Shown here: positions 10,465-37,913 of the stretch, in pieces
Layout of the letters: the number at the start of each line of letters is the position of its first letter
Position numbering within the stretch: position 1 is the first letter of the stretch
From: Escherichia phage KIT01
Sequence record: AP019521.1
Length of the DNA stretch: 64,000 bases
Strand: one strand, 5' to 3'
Made by a program: the position numbers and the translations under genes
The notes under the pieces: generated by a model
Seen by the model: the letters and a program-made list of their open reading frames with translations, nothing else
Databases searched by the model: none
What the model was told of the DNA's origin: nothing

Positions 10465-10650
10465 TTATTTTTCAAATGTACTATAAAACGAGCGATGCAA
10501 CCGTTTAAATTGACGAATCATCTTTTTAGTAGGACGGGTGTATAATCCTACACAAGTGGCCATAAACTGGTCAGTTGGACTTCCTTTGATAAGAAGTTTC
10601 CAGACCTTGTCACCGTTTAACTTTTCGGTATAGACTAATACAGTTTTCAT
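10465..10650 (-). CDS. hypothetical protein
   Basis: 61-aa ORF. Confidence 0.35.
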   Translation of the reverse strand: MKTVLVYTEKLNGDKVWKLLIKGSPTDQFMATCVGLYTRPTKKMIRQFKRLHRSFYSTFEK

Positions 10651-10949
10651 GCGACCTCAAATTCATTATCATCGTTAGTCCAAAAACACCAGAATGCAGA
10701 TTTGGTGCCTTCATACATTTCTTTGGTGTATTCATATACCTTACCATTGAACTCAATAGCAGTCACACCAATGATTTCAGGATTACCCCAGGGAGAAATC
10801 TCCACCTTCAAGATTTTAACTTCAGCACCTTCACAGAGCTTACCGGATTCAAAGCCGCGATTGCCGTTTAATTCAGGCCAGTCAACATAATGGTCAACGG
10901 TTTCTTCAGTAATACGAACAGTTTTACCTTCAAATTCAAATAAATTCAT
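10647..10949 (-). CDS. hypothetical protein
   Basis: 100-aa ORF. Confidence 0.45.
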   Translation of the reverse strand: MNLFEFEGKTVRITEETVDHYVDWPELNGNRGFESGKLCEGAEVKILKVEISPWGNPEIIGVTAIEFNGKVYEYTKEMYEGTKSAFWCFWTNDDNEFEVA

Positions 10950-11238
10950 CAGAATACCTCATCAGAAAAGCGAAGTTGAGCTTCAAGCCAATGGATATAG
11001 TCAGCGGCAGCTTTAATCAAATCGGATTCTAGGTCAGGTAAAGAACCTGAATCCGACAACTCGTAAAGCGAATGTTCAATCAGACGGCCCTTATGACGGC
11101 CAACTTCAATTTTGGTACTCATATCCAAACTCCATATCGATTAAATCATTGTTTGAAGGTTCATTATACTCTATTTCGGAATCATTGTAAACCGGTTCCT
11201 CTGGCTCGGTAGTTTCCCACCGAGCGACATACCATGGC

Positions 11239-11547
11239 TTAACGGTCACACCACCAACTCGATACTTCAAAATCGGGTTCGCCGTGTTCCCAGTACCAAG
11301 GGCCGACTGGGTGCCAATCACCGTGTTCATCTTCTTCAAATTCTTCGGATTCAAGCCCAACGTATTGCCATTGAACTTCATAAGCGGTGCCACCTATTAC
11401 AACGGTGTTCTCGCCATATGGGTGAGCTACAGCAAAGTCTATACCTTCTGCTTTAGCCAGCCAAACCATATATTCATATAGTTTATATTCCAGGTCATCT
11501 TCGGTACCATCACCTAGAAAAATGGTTTGTTCGTTTAATTCAATCAT
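11239..11547 (-). CDS. hypothetical acidic protein
   Basis: 102 aa; ATG at 11547 preceded by GGTGGAG; ATGA coupling to upstream gene. Confidence 0.45.
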   Translation of the reverse strand: MIELNEQTIFLGDGTEDDLEYKLYEYMVWLAKAEGIDFAVAHPYGENTVVIGGTAYEVQWQYVGLESEEFEEDEHGDWHPVGPWYWEHGEPDFEVSSWWCDR

Positions 11548-27592: not shown

Positions 27593-27991
27593 TTATTTGT
27601 AGGTTTTCATCCAATTCTTGAACAAAGCCGCGACGTCTTTCTCTTTAACGTTCAGTTTAACGTCCAACATTTTACCACCCGCTGCTCTCGTTTGGCGAAT
27701 CTTAGCAGTACCGGTTTCACCATTCCACTCAACATAATACTGTCCAGTGTTCATTGCAATACCATCACCATAGTCTTCATTTTTAGAAGTGGTGAATGCC
27801 AGCTTCATAGTCTTAGATACACGAGCCTGCATGCCTGTCTGAAGGGCATTACGAACTCGAATAACCTGAGGAGTGGCCTGGGTCAGGTTCTCATTCAGTT
27901 CTTCAGTGAACTCTTCGGATTCGAACATCGCCAAAAGTTCTTTAGATGCAGGAATTACATTCTCTGCGATAAATTCATTATAAGTTTTCAT
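27593..27991 (-). CDS. capsid-targeted internal protein (CTS leader; IPIII position)
   Basis: 132 aa; N-terminus [10 protein letters not shown]; directly downstream of e. Confidence 0.55.
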
Positions 27992-28472
27992 ATGCTTTCC
28001 AAGTACCTGTTTTAAATGTAGAAATCACGCGCTTAGCACGATTAGGAGTTTGTTTATACCAACGGGATTGAGCCAGGTTAACTGCCGCATCGTTCCAACG
28101 TTTCTGTCGGAGCATACGTAAAGAGTTAGTGAACCCTGCTACACCTGCTTCACCCATTTGGAAGACCATGTTAATTAAAGCACAACGACGAACTTCGTCC
28201 AATACATCGTAAACAGGTTTCAATTTAGGATTACGCAGAATAGCTCTACGAGCATTTTCAACCGATCGGTTAAAGAGTTGTTCAGCTTCAGCCATAGTAA
28301 TACGTCCATTGCAAACTCGACCCATAAGCTTATCAAGTTCAGCCCGAGCAACATCTTTAGAAGGATTCTTAGTAATCAATTGGCCAATACCAATAGTCCA
28401 ATAACCTTCGGTGTCTTTATAAAGATTTAAATCAAGACCTTCGTCTTGACGTAACATATCAAAAATATCCAT
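27978..28472 (-). CDS. e: lysozyme (endolysin) gp e
   Basis: 164 aa; [35 protein letters not shown]... matches T4 lysozyme. Confidence 0.9.
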
Positions 28473-28972: not shown

Positions 28973-29182
28973 TTAAAAAATATCTCGTATAATAATTTCA
29001 ACACATGTTTCTGTTGACGGACTTTCACTATCAGATATTTGGACCATATAATCAGAAATAGGTCGGAACATATCCAAGTCGCTTTCTAAATCTTCTTTGA
29101 TTTTCTCTTCTGATGTTCCGGTATCATAGGAATACAGGTAAGAATCACATGACTCAGATTTAATATAAATTGCAATACTCAT
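28973..29182 (-). CDS. hypothetical acidic protein
   Basis: 69-aa ORF. Confidence 0.4.
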   Translation of the reverse strand: MSIAIYIKSESCDSYLYSYDTGTSEEKIKEDLESDLDMFRPISDYMVQISDSESPSTETCVEIIIRDIF

Positions 29183-29766
29183 TTACGGCATTCCTTAATA
29201 AAAGAGTTTAATGTATTTTTCTTGGTGATATCATCATATACCTTTTTAACTTTAGAAATACGAAAAGGTACTTCAATAACGGAGGTCCATAAAAATGATG
29301 CGATAAGACCTAAGATAGCAGCAGACATCGCTGAAGCGAATACACAAATAGGCAGGTCATTATCTGTTGTCAGGAAAAACCCTAGGAGTAGGAAAAATAA
29401 TATACCCATCCAAACATAGAATCTAGAACTCACCAATTTGTCGTATTCATCACTCCAGGCACGGAAGCCGTATTTTTTGCTATAACAAATCAATGGGTCT
29501 GGAGTCTGTTCTTTATGTGGTTCTGGTTGCCAGCCGTTTACGATATAGCCCATTTTATATTCCTCAATTAAAAGCCGTTTCATTTCGGCAGTACAACCTG
29601 ACCAATCTATTGTACTGGCTGAAATTCCTTCATCACCGTCATCGATATTTCGCCAGGACTTTTTAATAATCATAGTCTCACCACTTGGGATAATAATTCC
29701 GGCATTTTCCGACCGACGGATGAAGTTTGCATCAATACCCATACACCCAGGTTCATAAAGGGCCAT
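29179..29766 (-). CDS. membrane protein
   Basis: 195 aa; two C-terminal hydrophobic helices. Confidence 0.5.
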   Translation of the reverse strand: MALYEPGCMGIDANFIRRSENAGIIIPSGETMIIKKSWRNIDDGDEGISASTIDWSGCTAEMKRLLIEEYKMGYIVNGWQPEPHKEQTPDPLICYSKKYGFRAWSDEYDKLVSSRFYVWMGILFFLLLGFFLTTDNDLPICVFASAMSAAILGLIASFLWTSVIEVPFRISKVKKVYDDITKKNTLNSFIKECRK

Positions 29767-30455
29767 TACCAGCCCTCCATAGGGAATTCCAGATATACTT
29801 GAGCATTAACACGGATTTCATTAGTAATCTTTTTAACACGGTCTGTATTACGAGACACACGACCAAACCAGCGCCAACCGTTACTTACTGCACGAGAACC
29901 TGTATGCCATGTCTGCCAATCAAACTGGAGCAACGTGCGGTCAGGAGCATCCCACTTGGTTAATTCATTGGACTCAATTTTTTCCAGAACTTCTTTATGC
30001 CACTGGCGATAGATAAGTTCGCCTTCAGGAATCTGACTGAACTGTGCAGTTCCGGTTGCAAAATGAGTAGGACACACATCAGCGTTAACAAGACCAAGAA
30101 TATGTTCAGAATGGTATCGAGGATTATCATAATCAGGTTGCCCTGCGGTAATAAAGTGTTGACCAACCGGAATATCCGGACGTGGTACATCATCATGGTG
30201 GAAGCCTGGAATTGCAGGGTACCAGCCAGGCATTAACATGTGTACACGGGAATCAAATACAATATCAGGGCCACATTGCCAATCTTCAGGCAGGTTTTCA
30301 ATAAAGCTACGAGTAATAGGACCACCGTGTTTATGAGCAAAATAAGCATCGCAATTAAAGAACATAGGCTCATTTTTAATCATACCATTACTGATATCTT
30401 GAGCAAAATTACCTACTATAGAAGCTTTAGAATTAAAAGTTTTCGGACCGTTCAT
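29766..30455 (-). CDS. 2OG-Fe(II) oxygenase superfamily-like protein (PhyH-like)
   Basis: HxD-like FHHDD and distal WHTGSRAVSNGWRWFGRVS resembling the H-x-G-x-x-N-x-S...R 2-oxoglutarate-binding motif. Confidence 0.4.
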   Translation of the reverse strand: MNGPKTFNSKASIVGNFAQDISNGMIKNEPMFFNCDAYFAHKHGGPITRSFIENLPEDWQCGPDIVFDSRVHMLMPGWYPAIPGFHHDDVPRPDIPVGQHFITAGQPDYDNPRYHSEHILGLVNADVCPTHFATGTAQFSQIPEGELIYRQWHKEVLEKIESNELTKWDAPDRTLLQFDWQTWHTGSRAVSNGWRWFGRVSRNTDRVKKITNEIRVNAQVYLEFPMEGW

Positions 30456-30469
30456 AATATTTTCCTCAC

Positions 30470-30682
30470 TTACTTTTTGTTGAAAAAGTACATTTTACCT
30501 TTAGGAGATAAGGATACACGAAGTGCGTTACCAATACCAACTGAACATTTAACCAGGTCAGCAGATTTCAATTCACCAAATGCTTGACGAAGGTCACCAT
30601 CACGAGTGTTAACCATCAGGCATTTAGCACCAGCTGCACGAACTTCGTTTAACATGTTGATTGCTTGGTTAGAAAGTTTCAT
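30470..30682 (-). CDS. hypothetical protein
   Basis: ATG 30682 (MKLSNQ...) after GGAGAATAAA; the upstream in-frame ATG is part of the SD. Confidence 0.45.
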   Translation of the reverse strand: MKLSNQAINMLNEVRAAGAKCLMVNTRDGDLRQAFGELKSADLVKCSVGIGNALRVSLSPKGKMYFFNKK

Positions 30683-30713
30683 TTTATTCTCCATTTCACT
30701 CTGTTGTTTTGAT

Positions 30714-30748
30714 AGGTCTATAGTATCACACCTATAGACCTTGTACAC
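30714..30748 (-). promoter_or_regulatory. early promoter with 10-bp perfect inverted repeat (PeSL-like)
   Basis: GTGTAC(30743-30748)-17 nt-TACTAT(30720-30725); arms AGGTCTATAG(30714-30723)/CTATAGACCT(30732-30741). Confidence 0.5.
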
Positions 30749-30760
30749 TGTTTTGTGCAA

Positions 30761-31720
30761 TTATTTTTCGAAAGGACGAATTAAATGATGGTTATCTTGG
30801 AAACGCTTGATGTAGTCGTTTTCACCTAAAGTCTTGTACATATTAACCACAGCTTGGTAGTTTTCCCAGGCGTACTCACGGAACCAACCTGAAGTGATTG
30901 AGGTACACACTTTCTCAAGGGCCATATAGAAACTTAATGATGGTGAAATATTGAAGTCATTAGGAACCTGTGAACGTTCTAGGGCAAGGACACAAGTTTC
31001 TTCATACACGCCAGCCAATTTAATAGCTTCAGGCAAAGCCTCGAACTTCTCACGAGAGGTCATGACTTCAGAACCTTCCTTCATATAAAAGGTATATGCA
31101 GGGCGCCCTGCCAATGCTACTGCTTCATGAATAGAGTCATGGTCCAGCGTATAAATGGTATCATTAAAGAATGATGATTTGTTTACGTCCAATTTAGGGT
31201 GGGAATAGCTCAACGTTTCTTTTTGACGCTGCAGCATAATTTCCTGGAGTTCTTCGTTCAGGGTGATACCTTTATTACGAAGGTATTTGATGTGGGACAT
31301 AGTTTTCAGGAAGAACGGAGTATTCTTCAGGAAACGATGAGAGGTTTTGATAGCCAGACAGATATCAGGCGTAGCCCAATAGAAACCTGTAAGACGGTCC
31401 TTTTTAATATGATTTTCGGCATATTTCAAAAGACGATAACTTGAGGTGAAATCTTCGTCTTGAAGCTCACCGGTGATTTCGCGTACATTAGTCAGAGCAC
31501 GAACGATATAAGCTTCAAAATAGGTTTCTTTACCATTATGCATACATTTGAAAGCCTGGACATCAGGATTGTCAACGTGTACATGGGCACCGAACATCCG
31601 AGCTTTAAAGTGATTCCATGAGCCTTGGTCGGCAATGAAATCCCAATCAGAATTTTCGATTTGCTTACTTTCAATCAGGCCAGCGTGGTGCAGTGCACGA
31701 GAACCAATAACTAACATCAT
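30761..31720 (-). CDS. hypothetical protein (319 aa)
   Basis: ATG 31720 after GAGGAAAA; N-terminal VIGSRALHHAGL...NSDWDFIA could be a divergent nucleotidyltransferase-like motif (uncertain). Confidence 0.5.
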   Translation of the reverse strand: MMLVIGSRALHHAGLIESKQIENSDWDFIADQGSWNHFKARMFGAHVHVDNPDVQAFKCMHNGKETYFEAYIVRALTNVREITGELQDEDFTSSYRLLKYAENHIKKDRLTGFYWATPDICLAIKTSHRFLKNTPFFLKTMSHIKYLRNKGITLNEELQEIMLQRQKETLSYSHPKLDVNKSSFFNDTIYTLDHDSIHEAVALAGRPAYTFYMKEGSEVMTSREKFEALPEAIKLAGVYEETCVLALERSQVPNDFNISPSLSFYMALEKVCTSITSGWFREYAWENYQAVVNMYKTLGENDYIKRFQDNHHLIRPFEK

Positions 31721-31739
31721 AATATTTTCCTCATTAAAC

Positions 31740-31979
31740 TTAAATTTCAGCAACGTAATCGTTATGCAATTCCCACATATCATCAGAATTATTCTTAATG
31801 ATAGGAATTATCTCATTAGAGATTTCTTCTGCATAAGGGTCATTGATACAGTGAGCATCTTCAAAACGAACACCGTAATCAGACTTCTTATAGGCAAAGC
31901 CATAAATCTTTTTAAACTTGGCACGGGTAATGCGTACCGGTTCATTAGACTTATCAGACAACGGAGAGTAATACCACAT
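31740..31979 (-). CDS. hypothetical protein
   Basis: 79-aa ORF. Confidence 0.4.
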   Translation of the reverse strand: MWYYSPLSDKSNEPVRITRAKFKKIYGFAYKKSDYGVRFEDAHCINDPYAEEISNEIIPIIKNNSDDMWELHNDYVAEI

Positions 31980-32022
31980 ATGTTCTCCTCATGTTTGTGT
32001 ATGGTAATAGTAACACGATTTT

Positions 32023-32352
32023 CTAGAGTTGTACATCACTTCTGCAATATTCTAAAAATAATTTATCATTGTCTACAGTATCCCAACGACGCCAAGATGG
32101 ATTCCAGACCAGAGCGTTGTCACCACAATCATTGAGCTTAAAATGGTCGTAGTACATAGCTATATGTCTAGTTTCGTCACCAGAGAACCCTAGTATAGGC
32201 TCACCGTGGGTGTGATACATATGATGGTGCATTGAGAGGTCGCATTTGTAAAACATCTCACGTTTACCACGAACGAACAAGAAAGCTTGCCCATTCATAT
32301 AGAATTCTTTATCTGTTTTCAAAAGATATTTGAATACTGAATCTTTGTGCAT
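32023..32352 (-). CDS. His-rich hypothetical protein (possible metal-binding)
   Basis: ATG 32352 after AGGAGG; contains MHHHMYHTHGE cluster. Confidence 0.45.
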   Translation of the reverse strand: MHKDSVFKYLLKTDKEFYMNGQAFLFVRGKREMFYKCDLSMHHHMYHTHGEPILGFSGDETRHIAMYYDHFKLNDCGDNALVWNPSWRRWDTVDNDKLFLEYCRSDVQL

Positions 32353-32382: not shown

Positions 32383-32610
32383 TTATTTTCCTAACGAAAC
32401 ACGAGTAGGTTTTTTACCAAAATAGTCTTCATAAGAACCATCTAAACGTCCCGCTTTAGACCGACAATATGAATCGTACTTTTTATAATAAGTCATCTCA
32501 GTATTATAACGTGGGTGTCTATCAGCCATAATAATACTTAGTGGCCAACCTTTGGCATAATCGCGAAGACCATTTATTTTACGAATGTATCGTTTTTTCA
32601 ATTTTAGCAT
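32383..32610 (-). CDS. hypothetical basic protein
   Basis: 75-aa ORF. Confidence 0.4.
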   Translation of the reverse strand: MLKLKKRYIRKINGLRDYAKGWPLSIIMADRHPRYNTEMTYYKKYDSYCRSKAGRLDGSYEDYFGKKPTRVSLGK

Positions 32611-32828
32611 GAGCTTGGGTACCAGATTTTACCATCGGCCTGAGCAACGAAGGTGCGACCAGCTTCTTCACCATAACAAGAGCTATTCAGCCAATCTTCG
32701 AGACGAACTTCACCGTCATAATCGTCTAGCTCAACACCAAAATCCTGAGCAGAAGCCATATCTTTTACTTTCTTATACAGTGCGGCCAGTTCAAGTGCCG
32801 CTTTTTCTAATTCATTAATATCAGACAT
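32604..32828 (-). CDS. W-x-SS-C-tail paralog family member D
   Basis: 74 aa; helical N-terminus, C-terminus KIWYPSSC. Confidence 0.5.
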   Translation of the reverse strand: MSDINELEKAALELAALYKKVKDMASAQDFGVELDDYDGEVRLEDWLNSSCYGEEAGRTFVAQADGKIWYPSSC

Positions 32829-32839
32829 TTTTTATCACC

Positions 32840-33049
32840 TTAGCAAGACATAGAGGAGCTAAACCAGAAACCTTCACCTTCAGGAATACCGTAGTCATCA
32901 CGGGCCCATTCATAATCATCATATTCCGGACTAGAAGCTGGAATATATTCTTCGCCACCAGCGTGGAAGTGCTGACCTGTTTCGTCAGCCACGGCCTGGC
33001 CTTTACGTACTAATTCGCGGATTTGTTTTTCAATTTCATCAATAGTCAT
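32840..33049 (-). CDS. W-x-SSS-x-x-C-tail paralog family member C
   Basis: 69 aa; C-terminus FWFSSSMSC. Confidence 0.5.
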   Translation of the reverse strand: MTIDEIEKQIRELVRKGQAVADETGQHFHAGGEEYIPASSPEYDDYEWARDDYGIPEGEGFWFSSSMSC

Positions 33050-33058
33050 TTTATTTCC

Positions 33059-33340
33059 TTAGCATTCAGAAGAAGAGGACACCCAACCACCATTTTCTAG
33101 GCTGGTAGTGTAATCATGCTGGTTTACAATAGCGTACTGAGCTTCACCGTATTCTTCCCAGTGGGCAAGGTCGGCTTTCAGGGCGCCAGGAGAATAATAG
33201 TCACCGCCCATACCGCGAGCAGGGTATATATTAAAATGAGTCTCATATTTGTTTGCAATTTCCTCGGCACGACGAATAGCTTTATGGATATCATTTACTG
33301 CATCAGCCAGTTCTTTATTTTTACGGTAATCATTCATCAT
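33059..33340 (-). CDS. W-x-SSS-x-x-C-tail paralog family member B
   Basis: 93 aa; C-terminus GWVSSSSEC. Confidence 0.5.
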   Translation of the reverse strand: MMNDYRKNKELADAVNDIHKAIRRAEEIANKYETHFNIYPARGMGGDYYSPGALKADLAHWEEYGEAQYAIVNQHDYTTSLENGGWVSSSSEC

Positions 33341-33349
33341 AGCGTTTCC

Positions 33350-33640
33350 TTAGCACAATGCCGAAGAGGAGACCCAAGCACCAACGGTAACGACACCGTT
33401 TTCAACTTCACCACCGTTGTTTTCAATTTCATCTTTAAACCACTGGGAGCATTCGTAACCGACAGGATAATATGTACGACCCGAACCATAATCACCAGTG
33501 CCGAATTCAATACCATACTTATCGGCAATAGCTTCACATTCATGTTCGATGGTATTCACTTTATTCAGAAGAGCATAGATAGCCTTTTCTGCAGATTTCT
33601 CGTCGTTGTGTTCCGGGATTTCGATTTCAATTTTATTCAT
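33350..33640 (-). CDS. W-x-SSS-x-x-C-tail paralog family member A
   Basis: 96 aa; C-terminus AWVSSSALC; ATG overlaps upstream stop. Confidence 0.5.
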   Translation of the reverse strand: MNKIEIEIPEHNDEKSAEKAIYALLNKVNTIEHECEAIADKYGIEFGTGDYGSGRTYYPVGYECSQWFKDEIENNGGEVENGVVTVGAWVSSSALC

Positions 33641-33987
33641 GATTTACATTCCTTAATAAAGGTTTCAAGGTCATTACGTTTAGTTTGTTTTACATACTCA
33701 TTATAATTAGCCATCTCTAAAGCATATCTCTTTTTGCTTGGCTTGTTTATCCTATTGGTGTTGATAATATCCAAGACAAGAGGGATAAAGTATCCTATTA
33801 AAGCTGGAACCCAAATCCAGGCAGGGTTCAATTCAAATAGATTTTGTGTCGTATCATTAACGACTCCGCCAGCAATTAGTCCAACAAGCCCGGCAATCAT
33901 ACCAGTGACAAGTCCAGCGAATAAAGAAATAGCGATATCATAATCTGCTAATGCGTAACCAGGGTCGGTTTTACTAGGCTTATACAT
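33637..33987 (-). CDS. membrane protein
   Basis: ATG 33987 after AAGAGG; hydrophobic GLVTGMIAGLVGLIAGG and a second helix. Confidence 0.45.
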   Translation of the reverse strand: MYKPSKTDPGYALADYDIAISLFAGLVTGMIAGLVGLIAGGVVNDTTQNLFELNPAWIWVPALIGYFIPLVLDIINTNRINKPSKKRYALEMANYNEYVKQTKRNDLETFIKECKS

Positions 33988-34516
33988 TACGAACCTCTTT
34001 AGCGTATTCGCGGCATTCAGCAATAAAACGATTAAGCTTCCGTTGCTGTTTTCGAATCTCTGATGTATACTCATTGGCCAAAATAATAAGCTCATCTTTA
34101 TCGTAATTTTTAATATCAGAGTAAGATGGGCGGCGGTCGACCATACCAAAATGGTCACCATTTTCTAACATCAAATAGCATACTAAATGGTAATCATCGT
34201 CGGCATTAGTAAGCTGTTTATAATCGCTTGGTTCATTTAAAGAGTATACTGAATAGCGTAGCCCAGCGAACTCCACTCGTTGAATATCCAGATTTACGTC
34301 AATAATTTCTAAAGCTTCTGCAAAAGAAAGGTCCTCAGCCAAAGCAAAGATAAAAGGTAATTTGGTAGTATGCCCACGGCTACTTGTTCGACTTAAGAAA
34401 TCATTGGAATAACCTAAGTCTTGGCGAATTCTATAAAGAACTGAATTAGTTTCATGTGAAAGACCACTATGTTTAAACCAATCAATATTTGATATCAGGT
34501 CGTCATATAAACTCAT
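33980..34516 (-). CDS. hypothetical protein
   Basis: 178-aa ORF. Confidence 0.5.
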   Translation of the reverse strand: MSLYDDLISNIDWFKHSGLSHETNSVLYRIRQDLGYSNDFLSRTSSRGHTTKLPFIFALAEDLSFAEALEIIDVNLDIQRVEFAGLRYSVYSLNEPSDYKQLTNADDDYHLVCYLMLENGDHFGMVDRRPSYSDIKNYDKDELIILANEYTSEIRKQQRKLNRFIAECREYAKEVRNV

Positions 34517-34564: not shown

Positions 34565-35158
34565 TTACTTAAGTGAATTAATGTAGTCGTCGATATCGGC
34601 AGAAGTCGTATCCATTCCAACTTGCGGGCCTTTAAACGTTTCTACACGCAGTAGGGTGTCTTCAATATCAATCTTAGTCAGTGCAGCGATTTCAACAACA
34701 TCATCGGCAGTAGCAATACCAAGGGCAGCCATATTACGAGTTTCACGGATATACTCGAGCTTAACGGCCAGTTCCTGACGAGAGTCATCAAGTTCCTTAA
34801 CCTTCAGTTTAATTTCATTACGCATTTCGATATAATCATCAGCTTTCTTACGAAGCTGAGTAGCTGTACGACGATAAAGGAGGCCAAGTTTAGCATGTAC
34901 CTGGACATCAGCGCCTTCGGCAATCAGTTTACGAATTTCACGTTCTTTAGAAGCAGCGAGCTGGTCCTTTTCATTAGCCAATGCACGAATACGTTTTTCT
35001 TCATTCACGGACTTAACATGAGCAGTCTGGAGTTCAGTAATTTTATCAATCAGGGTAGAAGCAGCTTTGGTGTATTGGTCTTCGATTGACAGGTTCTGAG
35101 TCATCGCGGTGCCCAGTTTAGAACGAATGAATTCAACGATTTTCTTTAAAGTGTTCAT
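34565..35158 (-). CDS. coiled-coil protein (PspA/IM30-like architecture, tentative)
   Basis: 197 aa almost entirely heptad-like charged helix; GAAGGAAA RBS; first gene after a PeSL-like promoter. Confidence 0.45.
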
Positions 35159-35195: not shown

Positions 35196-35231
35196 GAGGA
35201 CATTATACCCTGTCCTCTGAGGGTTGTAAAC
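35196..35231 (-). promoter_or_regulatory. early promoter (PeSL-like)
   Basis: GTTTAC(35226-35231)-17 nt-GTATAA(35203-35208); GAGGACA/TGTCCTC arms. Confidence 0.5.
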
Positions 35232-37756: not shown

Positions 37757-37831
37757 TGGTATCCCGCCCTGGGATCGAACCAGGACCGCAAACTTAGAAG
37801 GATCGTATGCTATCCATTACACCAGCGGGAC
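37757..37831 (-). tRNA. tRNA-Arg (anticodon UCU)
   Basis: hand-folded cloverleaf: acceptor GTCCCGC/GCGGGAT, T-arm CCTGG-TTCGATC-CCAGG, anticodon loop CTTCTAA, encoded ACCA 3' end. Confidence 0.7.
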
Positions 37832-37836
37832 GTAGT

Positions 37837-37913
37837 TGGTGACCCAGACCAGATTTGAACTGGTAACCTTTCCCTTATGAGGGGACTGCTGCTAACCATT
37901 GAGCTACAGGGCC
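37837..37913 (-). tRNA. tRNA with CAU anticodon (Met, or Ile if lysidine-modified)
   Basis: hand-folded: T-arm ACCAG-TTCAAAT-CTGGT, anticodon loop CTCATAA, encoded CCA; 5 nt from tRNA-Arg. Confidence 0.65.

Follow-up and report, generated by a model that had tools for sequence, protein, structure and literature searches.

We analysed a 64,000-nucleotide stretch of Escherichia phage KIT01 (sequence record AP019521.1; hereafter the window) in which three open reading frames (ORFs) of the minus strand, ORFs A, B and C, lie in the accessory region between lysozyme gene e and the tRNA genes. Our main finding is that ORF B, a predicted Pol-beta-type nucleotidyltransferase (NTase), belongs to a conserved cassette with an array of small, Cys-terminated proteins, to which it is very likely functionally coupled. 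A preliminary description of the region had proposed all three ORFs as candidate metal-dependent enzymes that could act on nucleic-acid bases, small molecules or host proteins; fold and motif conservation bear this out for A, as an oxygenase, and for B, but not for C. It had also treated the genes as parallel, isolated enzymes, a picture that does not hold, as the partners of B lie 0.9-1.9 kb upstream, outside the interval then flagged. The explanation that we judge reasonably probable as a whole is that A is an oxygenase, that B would nucleotidylate a Ser of its partner proteins, and that C is a genus-specific small protein.

ORF B and its small Cys-terminated partners

Upstream of ORF B lie four consecutive small ORFs (32604-33640) that share the ending W-x-[S/P]-S-(S)-x-x-C-stop, and these are the only four of the 433 ORFs in the window that match this tail motif. 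For a survey of neighbouring genes, we used 80 B loci from IMG/VR (50 distant and 30 T4-like), with 52 distant loci carrying A only as the control. Motif-ending ORFs were present at all 50 distant B loci (110 among 6535 ORFs) and at 28 of the 30 T4-like B loci, as against 2 of the 52 controls (2 among 5725 ORFs; Fisher p ~1e-27). Most of the 110 are co-directional with B (104) and upstream of it (102), at a median gap of 704 nt and in one to five copies per locus. When hidden Markov models (HMMs) for both partners were used to score co-occurrence over 161 loci, both were found at 103 and neither at 55, while the small motif occurred without B twice and B without the small family once. The small family therefore accompanies B at 103 of 104 loci, co-directionally and mostly upstream within ~0-1.6 kb; the sole B locus with no detectable small-family ORF within 8 kb is IMGVR_UViG_650627040 (165,540 bp; L104). 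T4 has neither B nor the small family, and five T4-like loci without B also lack the small family, at least two of them keeping flanking genes such as e and nudE. Finally, blast clustering of all neighbours at 51 distant B loci recovered only B and the small family as conserved.

The small proteins form one homologous family, phrog_899, with phrog_23943 as its long variant, and matched no family in Pfam. They are acidic, 45-172 aa long and only 14-40% identical overall; in each, an N-terminal helix is followed by a YG-x-GG-x-Y-x-P block, then an acidic linker and finally the tail G-x-W-x-x-S-S-x-x-C-COOH, of which only the W, an S and the terminal C are invariant. Among 212 tails, the spacing S-S-x-x-C-stop was seen in 134 and S-S-C without a spacer in 30. 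Recoding at the terminal Cys was considered and rejected, as a TAA codon follows the Cys in 88% of cases. The subtype represented by 32604-32828, also found at L122:7074-7313 and L146:5551-5775, combines a short-spacing terminal tag, W-[YH]-x-S-S-C, with an internal W-L/Q-x-S-S/A/D-C-Y-G-E element resembling the C-terminal tag; judged by this resemblance, the element may be a duplicate of the recognition motif.

ORF B itself consists of a DUF7277 nucleotidyltransferase domain (residues ~1-120, with G6, S7, D25, D27 and E69) followed by a very conserved helical DUF7275 domain (~120-305) with a second invariant polar cluster (K125, H128, K139, H194, D195, H198, E240, E241, E248 and R249). We placed its start at 31720, rather than at that of the longer 31783 ORF, because its homologues are 305-322 aa long, in agreement with the annotation of phage Bp7. 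The predicted model has an NTase alpha/beta fold, the best structural matches being MenT1, ANT(2''), TglT, MenT4 and LnuA. The GS...SDWD segment previously noted as a possible divergent nucleotidyltransferase motif is exact, the protein beginning MMLVIGSRALHH...IENSDWDFIA, and the fold of the model, together with the invariance of G-S and D-x-D, supports that reading. G6 and S7, invariant in 33 long- and short-form sequences, sit at the junction of strand 2-5 and helix 6-12, while D25 and D27, invariant across the family, lie at the start of strand 26-31. The candidate third carboxylate, E69 on strand 64-73, is invariant in 51 sequences; its column is not invariant once the most distant and the short forms are added, in a variable region where the alignment is unreliable. 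An HD-domain phosphohydrolase was rejected as an identity for DUF7275, since the motif resembles one but has neither sequence nor structure support.

Homologues of ORF B were found in 733 sequenced phage genomes, from T4-likes to 370-kb jumbo phages. In Acinetobacter phage AM101 the homologue is annotated as a 'putative nucleotidyltransferase' and has two motif-ending small ORFs upstream. Cellular homologues were restricted to five metagenome-assembled genome (MAG) contigs among 185,579 species genomes, and a structure search of BFVD with ORF B returned only its own family. DUF7275 also occurs in proteins of 508 and 571 aa of the giant eukaryotic viruses Sylvanvirus and Satyrvirus (BFVD A0A3G5AJ90 and A0A3G5AE53), so that the enzyme family is not limited to bacterial viruses. 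All 51 members of the family that were scanned with Pfam matched DUF7275 and DUF7277 and nothing else; for DUF1814 or AbiEii there was no match in Pfam (51 members) or in PADLOC (five B-family proteins). At 13 of 51 distant loci a calcineurin-like metallophosphoesterase (GDxHG...GNHE, ~247 aa) lies ~0.9 kb downstream of B (e.g. L126:10543-11286); this may be an eraser or an accessory enzyme, or its position may reflect no more than lineage synteny.

A second lineage is formed by short-form enzymes of ~250 aa (phrog_6944) from KVP40, Streptomyces and Gordonia phages, which keep the G-S, the D-x-D and DUF7275 (loci L167-L169 and L172-L197; for example KVP40.0037, Streptomyces phage Wakanda gp195 and Gordonia phage Cucurbita gp15). 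These enzymes have no phrog_899 neighbours. At 28 of 29 short-form loci we instead found one to four adjacent co-directional copies of a second small family (phrog_8206, 18295 and 13591), amounting to 78 ORFs, 73 of them downstream of the enzyme, with the tail consensus ...G-x-x-x-S-[Y/W]-x-G-x-x-[aromatic]-D-G...E-V-x-P.....T-x-Y. An HMM of this family had no match at the other 161 loci. Homology between the two partner families was rejected (hhalign probability 0.2%); both have an invariant Ser in a Gly/aromatic context, and the second lacks the terminal Cys. Since such a pairing is found in the long- and short-form lineages alike, the coupling of an enzyme to an array of small proteins is a property of the whole DUF7275 enzyme family.

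Across Pfam, NCBIfam and PADLOC, no enzyme family was assigned to A, B, C or the small proteins. Our literature search returned no paper on DUF7275, DUF7277, the RB69 ORF names or such a cassette, and all database records read 'hypothetical'. B and its partners thus appear to be a new form of NTase-partner system, for which we could not find a described counterpart.

ORF A as a predicted oxygenase, and ORF C

In the case of ORF A, the predicted model has a double-stranded beta-helix (jelly-roll/cupin) core, and PhyH-type enzymes are its best structural matches. The HxD-like motif reported earlier corresponds to PGFHHDDVPR (H86-H87-D88-D89), whose HxD residues are invariant across diverged homologues. 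A distal pattern, given as H-x-G-x-x-N-x-S...R, had been loosely transcribed, the true string being H-T-G-S-R-A-V-S-N-G-W-R, but its residues are present, in the segment WHTGSRAVSNGWRWFGRVSR (H184, G186, R195, R199 and S201). Among 60 representatives at 30-54% identity, only seven columns in all are invariant; H86, D88 and H184 are three of these, and in the family as a whole no positions are more conserved than the HxD...H...R residues. H184 falls on a predicted strand, while R195 (H184 + 11) lies on strand 193-202 and is invariant, as is R199; in a sub-threshold alignment to BesD-type halogenases, H184 and R195 pair with a His and an Arg. The assignment of ORF A to the PhyH-type 2-oxoglutarate (2OG)/Fe(II) oxygenases is thus upheld, and a fold without a double-stranded beta-helix and non-conserved motif residues, which the preliminary description had named as speaking against it, are the opposite of what was found. 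For A and B alike, the motif residues appear to be more than chance, since they are invariant across diverged homologues. Taken together, these data lead us to assign A to the Fe(II)/2OG oxygenases and B to the Pol-beta-type nucleotidyltransferases with high confidence.

At the sequence level the family of ORF A stands apart. ORF A had no 2OG-oxygenase match in Pfam at E values up to 1 and none in NCBIfam, and when 60 diverse members were scanned with Pfam, 2OG-FeII_Oxy_5 was matched by one (E 0.045) and the AraC_binding cupin by three (E 0.003), both weakly. When PDB sequences were searched with A, B and C, as single sequences and as profiles, there was likewise nothing significant (best E 0.12-0.55). 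Judging from its model, ORF A would work like a PhyH-type enzyme, yet it is not a sequence member of the Pfam PhyH family. It shares its double-stranded beta-helix and HxD...H triad with PhyH-, ectoine-hydroxylase- and proline-hydroxylase-type dioxygenases (ColD 8xpf, EasH 4nao, EctD 4nmi, human PHYH 2a1x), which also have an Arg ~11 residues past the distal His on the next strand. By analogy, H86, D88 and H184 would bind Fe(II), R195 on the following strand would bind the 2OG C5-carboxylate, and the enzyme would hydroxylate or otherwise oxidise a substrate, which, going by its nearest structural relatives, would most likely be a small molecule or an amino-acid side chain, either free or peptidyl.

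ORF A is widely dispersed among phages, having been detected by tblastn in 471 phage records, including entero-, Aeromonas-, myco-, Gordonia-, Bacillus- and Stenotrophomonas phages. Conserved neighbours were sought at 52 distant viral loci and none was found; because of this, ORF A is regarded as an autonomous module whose substrate is unreadable from context. At 8 of the 52 distant loci (L063:6490-7962 and seven others) the gene immediately upstream of the homologue encodes a NamPT-like nicotinamide phosphoribosyltransferase, and at 3 a PRPP synthetase is encoded nearby, probably through lineage synteny. tRNA arrays adjoin the homologue at several loci (at L060, noted at 10479-11282, tRNA-Gly ends 43 nt ahead of A), and ARAGORN identified phage tmRNA genes, two of them permuted, beside tRNA arrays at distant A loci (L041:12881-13525, L063:12270-12658, L052/L053:841-1184). 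Three homologues with ~74% identity (P0054, P0055 and P0059) come from contigs of 108-113 kb assigned to Klebsiella pneumoniae, K. michiganensis and K. oxytoca, which may be phage-plasmids or unrecognised phage contigs.

T4-like cyanophages carry uncharacterised 'phytanoyl-CoA dioxygenase-domain' or 2OG-Fe(II) oxygenase genes, either accessory or core (Sullivan et al. 2010, PMC3037559), and resemble ORF A in this respect, both being uncharacterised Fe/2OG oxygenases of T4-like phages. However, the ten organism names that recur most often among ORF A tblastn matches in the phage collection include no cyanophage, and the rationale of nitrogen stress and 2OG proposed for cyanophages is not obviously transferable to coliphages. 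ORF A is a new, uncharacterised family within a well-known kind of enzyme.

ORF C presents a different picture. Its dense His cluster was read correctly (SMHHHMYHTHGE) but is conserved only in part. The family comprises only two protein clusters among 5.8 billion sequences and occurs in 64 phage records, all Dhakavirus-type and at least 80% identical; outside Dhakavirus, ORF C is not conserved with the cassette. It had no family in Pfam, NCBIfam or PADLOC, and its only PDB matches were recombinant His-tags. The composition of the protein (7.3% His, with the cluster MHHHMYHTH) and the invariance of H43, H47, C37, C76 and C103 in the few known homologues would fit a small metal-binding protein, for example one binding zinc or nickel, or an enzyme acting via the His cluster. 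Such a role is unlikely, however, given that three to four of the clustered His residues (H42, H44, H49, H63) vary even among relatives at least 62% identical, and that the protein is confined to one genus and shows no similarity in family or PDB searches. We take ORF C to be a small protein specific to its genus, with nothing that speaks for an enzyme.

Layout of the gene string

A 3.6-kb query spanning ORFs A-C is 92-97% identical to JS98/Bp7/IME08-like genomes (genus Dhakavirus, T4-type coliphages). The record of phage Bp7 contains coding sequences matching A, B and C, and every target gene there is a 'hypothetical protein'. In the window, the genes run as one co-directional minus-strand string in the order e.6 -> small array -> C -> B -> A -> e.2 -> nudE -> e, neighbours being separated by -7 to +48 nt (Table 1), and no convincing terminator was found within it from e.6 to e. 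The best promoter match is a candidate start of this string on the basis of its consensus; promoter-like sites were overall no more numerous in the scan than in shuffled sequence. A, B and C are probably three unrelated genes of one early-type co-directional string, and the e-to-tRNA 'accessory' region of T4-like phages is shown to be a mosaic of independent modules rather than one pathway.

Table 1. Features of the e.6-to-e region of phage KIT01, with positions in the window.
Feature	Position	Strand	Details
Lysozyme e	27978-28472	minus	downstream end of gene string
e.2	29179-29766	minus	member of gene string
ORF A, predicted Fe(II)/2-oxoglutarate-dependent oxygenase	29766..30455	minus	229 aa, phrog_1843, no Pfam family
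Small basic ORF between B and A	30470..30760	minus	phrog_6001, Dhakavirus-restricted
ORF B, predicted Pol-beta-type nucleotidyltransferase with helical domain	30761..31720	minus	319 aa, phrog_2141
Intervening small ORF directly upstream of B	31740..31979	minus	79 aa, phrog_3723, only in T4-like loci; outside conserved cassette
ORF C, His-cluster small ORF	32023..32352	minus	109 aa, phrog_9796
Intervening basic small ORF	32383..32610	minus	75 aa, pI 10, phrog_7065; few loci, nearly all Dhakavirus-type
Small acidic partner protein 4	32604..32828	minus	74 aa, phrog_899 (PHROG E 4e-10), short-spacing end ...KIWYPSSC-stop
Small acidic partner protein 3	32840..33049	minus	69 aa, phrog_899 (PHROG E 2e-13), end ...GFWFSSSMSC-stop
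Small acidic partner protein 2	33059..33340	minus	93 aa, phrog_899 (PHROG E 7e-20), end ...GGWVSSSSEC-stop
Small acidic partner protein 1	33350..33640	minus	96 aa, pI 4.4, phrog_899 (PHROG E 9e-23), end ...GAWVSSSALC-stop
e.6	34565-35158	minus	upstream end of gene string
Sigma-70-like promoter match TTTACA-17-TATAAT, 11/12	35202..35230	minus	best of scan, just upstream of e.6; consensus match only
Two tRNA genes	37757-37913		

Several further features of the region were recorded. For the small basic ORF between B and A, the mCpol domain of NCBIfam gave a weak, non-significant match (E 0.064; score 13.9, the cut-off being 40), which is probably noise. Dissimilar proteins of the e region, some with predicted membrane segments, end in a common tail, [L/F]-x-x-F-[I/V]-[K/A/E]-[E/D]-C-[R/K]: in the window, examples from e.2 and the ORFs 33637-34161 and 33980-34516 are FIKECRK, FIKECKS and FIAECREYAK, while in T4 (locus L171) e.3 carries FVIDCRKIK, e.4 FVKESRCK and e.5 FVKECREYVK. 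The tails suggest that such e.2-like proteins make up a family sharing one module at the C terminus. In addition, homologues of A, B, C and the small proteins are evidently misannotated in GenBank MK295203 (vB_EcoM_005), OM386655 (ESCO10), MZ571829 (VAC36), PP693301 and MW233709, where they bear the wrong structural labels 'tail sheath monomer', 'baseplate hub subunit', 'prohead assembly scaffold protein', 'head outer capsid protein' and 'tail completion protein'.

A proposed mechanism and its relation to known systems

From the observed folds, conserved catalytic motifs and gene association, we infer a use of metal and cofactor, a role of the small proteins as substrates and a chemistry for B. 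The enzyme would bind NTP-Mg via G6-S7 and D25-x-D27, dock the tail of a partner and transfer a nucleoside monophosphate (NMP) onto the hydroxyl of the conserved Ser, yielding nucleotidylated small effector proteins, and DUF7275, through its invariant K/H/HD/H/EE/ER cluster, would recognise the tag or catalyse a second step. The many divergent paralogues, which have only the terminal tag in common, look like the many substrates of one enzyme. As a specific chemistry for B, nucleotidylation of the partner Ser is the likeliest of the mechanisms considered but a tentative proposal. There is a precedent in MntA/HepT, where a minimal Pol-beta NTase nucleotidylates the protein encoded beside it (PMC7641770, PMC11586414). 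More speculatively still, the DUF7277-DUF7275 enzymes and their multi-copy small proteins might constitute an undescribed, widespread viral protein-tagging system, in which Ser is nucleotidylated at a short tag and the conjugates act as early-infection effectors. The enzyme would then read G-x-W-x-x-S-S-x-x-C-COOH in one lineage and G-x-x-x-S-[Y/W]...E-V-x-P in the other, and the protein-nucleotide conjugates would serve, for example, as nucleic-acid mimics or decoys against host defences.

The main rival to nucleotidylation is an antitoxin-like regulatory role for the small proteins. B would in that case be a MenT/AbiEii-like enzyme adding nucleotides to the 3' end of RNA or tRNA, with which the phage would shut off the host or manipulate tRNA, and its partners would restrain or time it by inserting their conserved tails into its active site as a Ser pseudo-substrate. 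The closest structural matches of B include the tRNA-modifying toxins MenT1, TglT/MenT3 and MenT4; the MenT1 gene has a short antitoxin ORF of 68 aa upstream of it, and the control of MenT toxins acts via an active-site Ser (PMC7450476, PMC11375011), in keeping with small ORFs that lie upstream of, and co-directional with, B. The presence of DUF7275 in giant viruses of eukaryotes would also fit a universal target such as RNA. Antitoxins are normally single-copy, however, and here there are one to five divergent paralogues alike only in their tails. Nor are tRNA genes enriched near B (4 of 50 distant loci as against 8 of 52 controls), and the missing DUF1814 and AbiEii matches, together with the near-exclusive occurrence of the cassette in virulent phages rather than in cellular toxin-antitoxin (TA)-type loci, count against a toxin of this kind, which we consider somewhat unlikely.

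A different fate for the tail would make the small proteins precursors resembling peptides that are made on the ribosome and then modified post-translationally (RiPPs): B would O-nucleotidylate the tail Ser, elimination would give dehydroalanine, and addition of the terminal Cys thiol would close a C-terminal thioether macrocycle (lanthionine- or AviCys-like). AviCys formation starts from a C-terminal Cys and a dehydrated Ser or Thr (PMC8549060). The dominant S-S-x-x-C-stop spacing has the Ser(i)...Cys(i+3) geometry of AviCys-forming peptides, and several divergent precursors per enzyme are typical of RiPP loci. Some lanthipeptide synthetases, moreover, employ kinase folds whose nucleotidyl counterparts are ANT-like NTases. 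Such a pathway is nevertheless very unlikely: the spacerless S-S-C subtype cannot be reconciled with a single ring size, no LanD-type decarboxylase, cyclase, dehydratase or protease is conserved nearby at 51 distant loci, the second partner family has no terminal Cys, and proteins of this length with conserved N-terminal blocks and a conserved 'core' reverse the usual RiPP pattern. It is more improbable again that A, B and the small proteins make up one pathway, with A oxidising, for instance, the small proteins or the product of B. A follows 305 nt downstream of B in their common gene string, and the two occur together at 24 of 81 A loci and ~22 of the 30 T4-like B loci; the 52 distant A loci, however, have no B and essentially no small-family ORFs, A is found at only 2 of the 50 distant B loci, and it occurs alone in myco-, Gordonia-, Bacillus- and Stenotrophomonas phages. 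A functional A-B link was therefore rejected on distribution, as it holds only in syntenic T4-likes.

With these assignments, two 'hypothetical proteins', A in 471 and B in 733 phage genomes, become testable enzymes with named catalytic residues. The pairing of B with the small array is a two-component module that joins DUF7275, DUF7277 and at least five PHROG families of unknown function in one testable hypothesis. Nucleotidylation of the small proteins, if it occurs, would establish a new class of post-translational modification encoded by viruses, for which natural substrates are at hand; a regulatory role would make the module a phage-borne counterpart of MenAT-type toxin control. Both possibilities have implications for the way in which large lytic phages take over cells or escape defence.

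Among known systems, the model for nucleotidylation by B is the HEPN-MNT (HepT/MntA) type VII toxin-antitoxin, in which a Pol-beta NTase gene likewise stands beside a small partner gene and the partner is (poly)nucleotidylated on a hydroxyl side chain (PMC7641770, PMC11586414). The cassette differs in that its partners are not HEPN RNases and have no Rx4-6H motif, the proposed acceptor is a Ser of the C-terminal tail rather than a Tyr, B has an extra 190-aa domain and the partners are multi-copy. The precursors of AviCys-containing peptides and lanthipeptides share with the small proteins a C-terminal Cys with a Ser three residues upstream, and several are found per enzyme (PMC8549060); the small proteins, by contrast, have a variable Ser-Cys spacing and are large folded acidic proteins rather than leader-core peptides. 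The aminoglycoside and lincosamide nucleotidyltransferases ANT(2'')-Ia and LnuA have no sequence similarity to B despite being structural matches, and the genomic context, with its protein partners, speaks against an antibiotic or another small molecule as the substrate of B.

The MenT and AbiEii toxins, with their MenA and AbiEi antitoxins, offer the other close comparison. DUF1814/MenT/AbiEii NTases have four motifs, of which I and II are those of Pol-beta, III is CCA-enzyme-like and IV is family-specific (PMC7450476). ORF B has motifs I and II together with its own invariant K125/H128/K139 and H194-D195-H198 clusters. It does not belong to these toxins at the sequence level, and its C-terminal DUF7275 is different and far more conserved. 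The cassette of B is further set apart by its one to five paralogous partners with an invariant C-terminal tag, and by its setting in the genomes of lytic phages and giant viruses.

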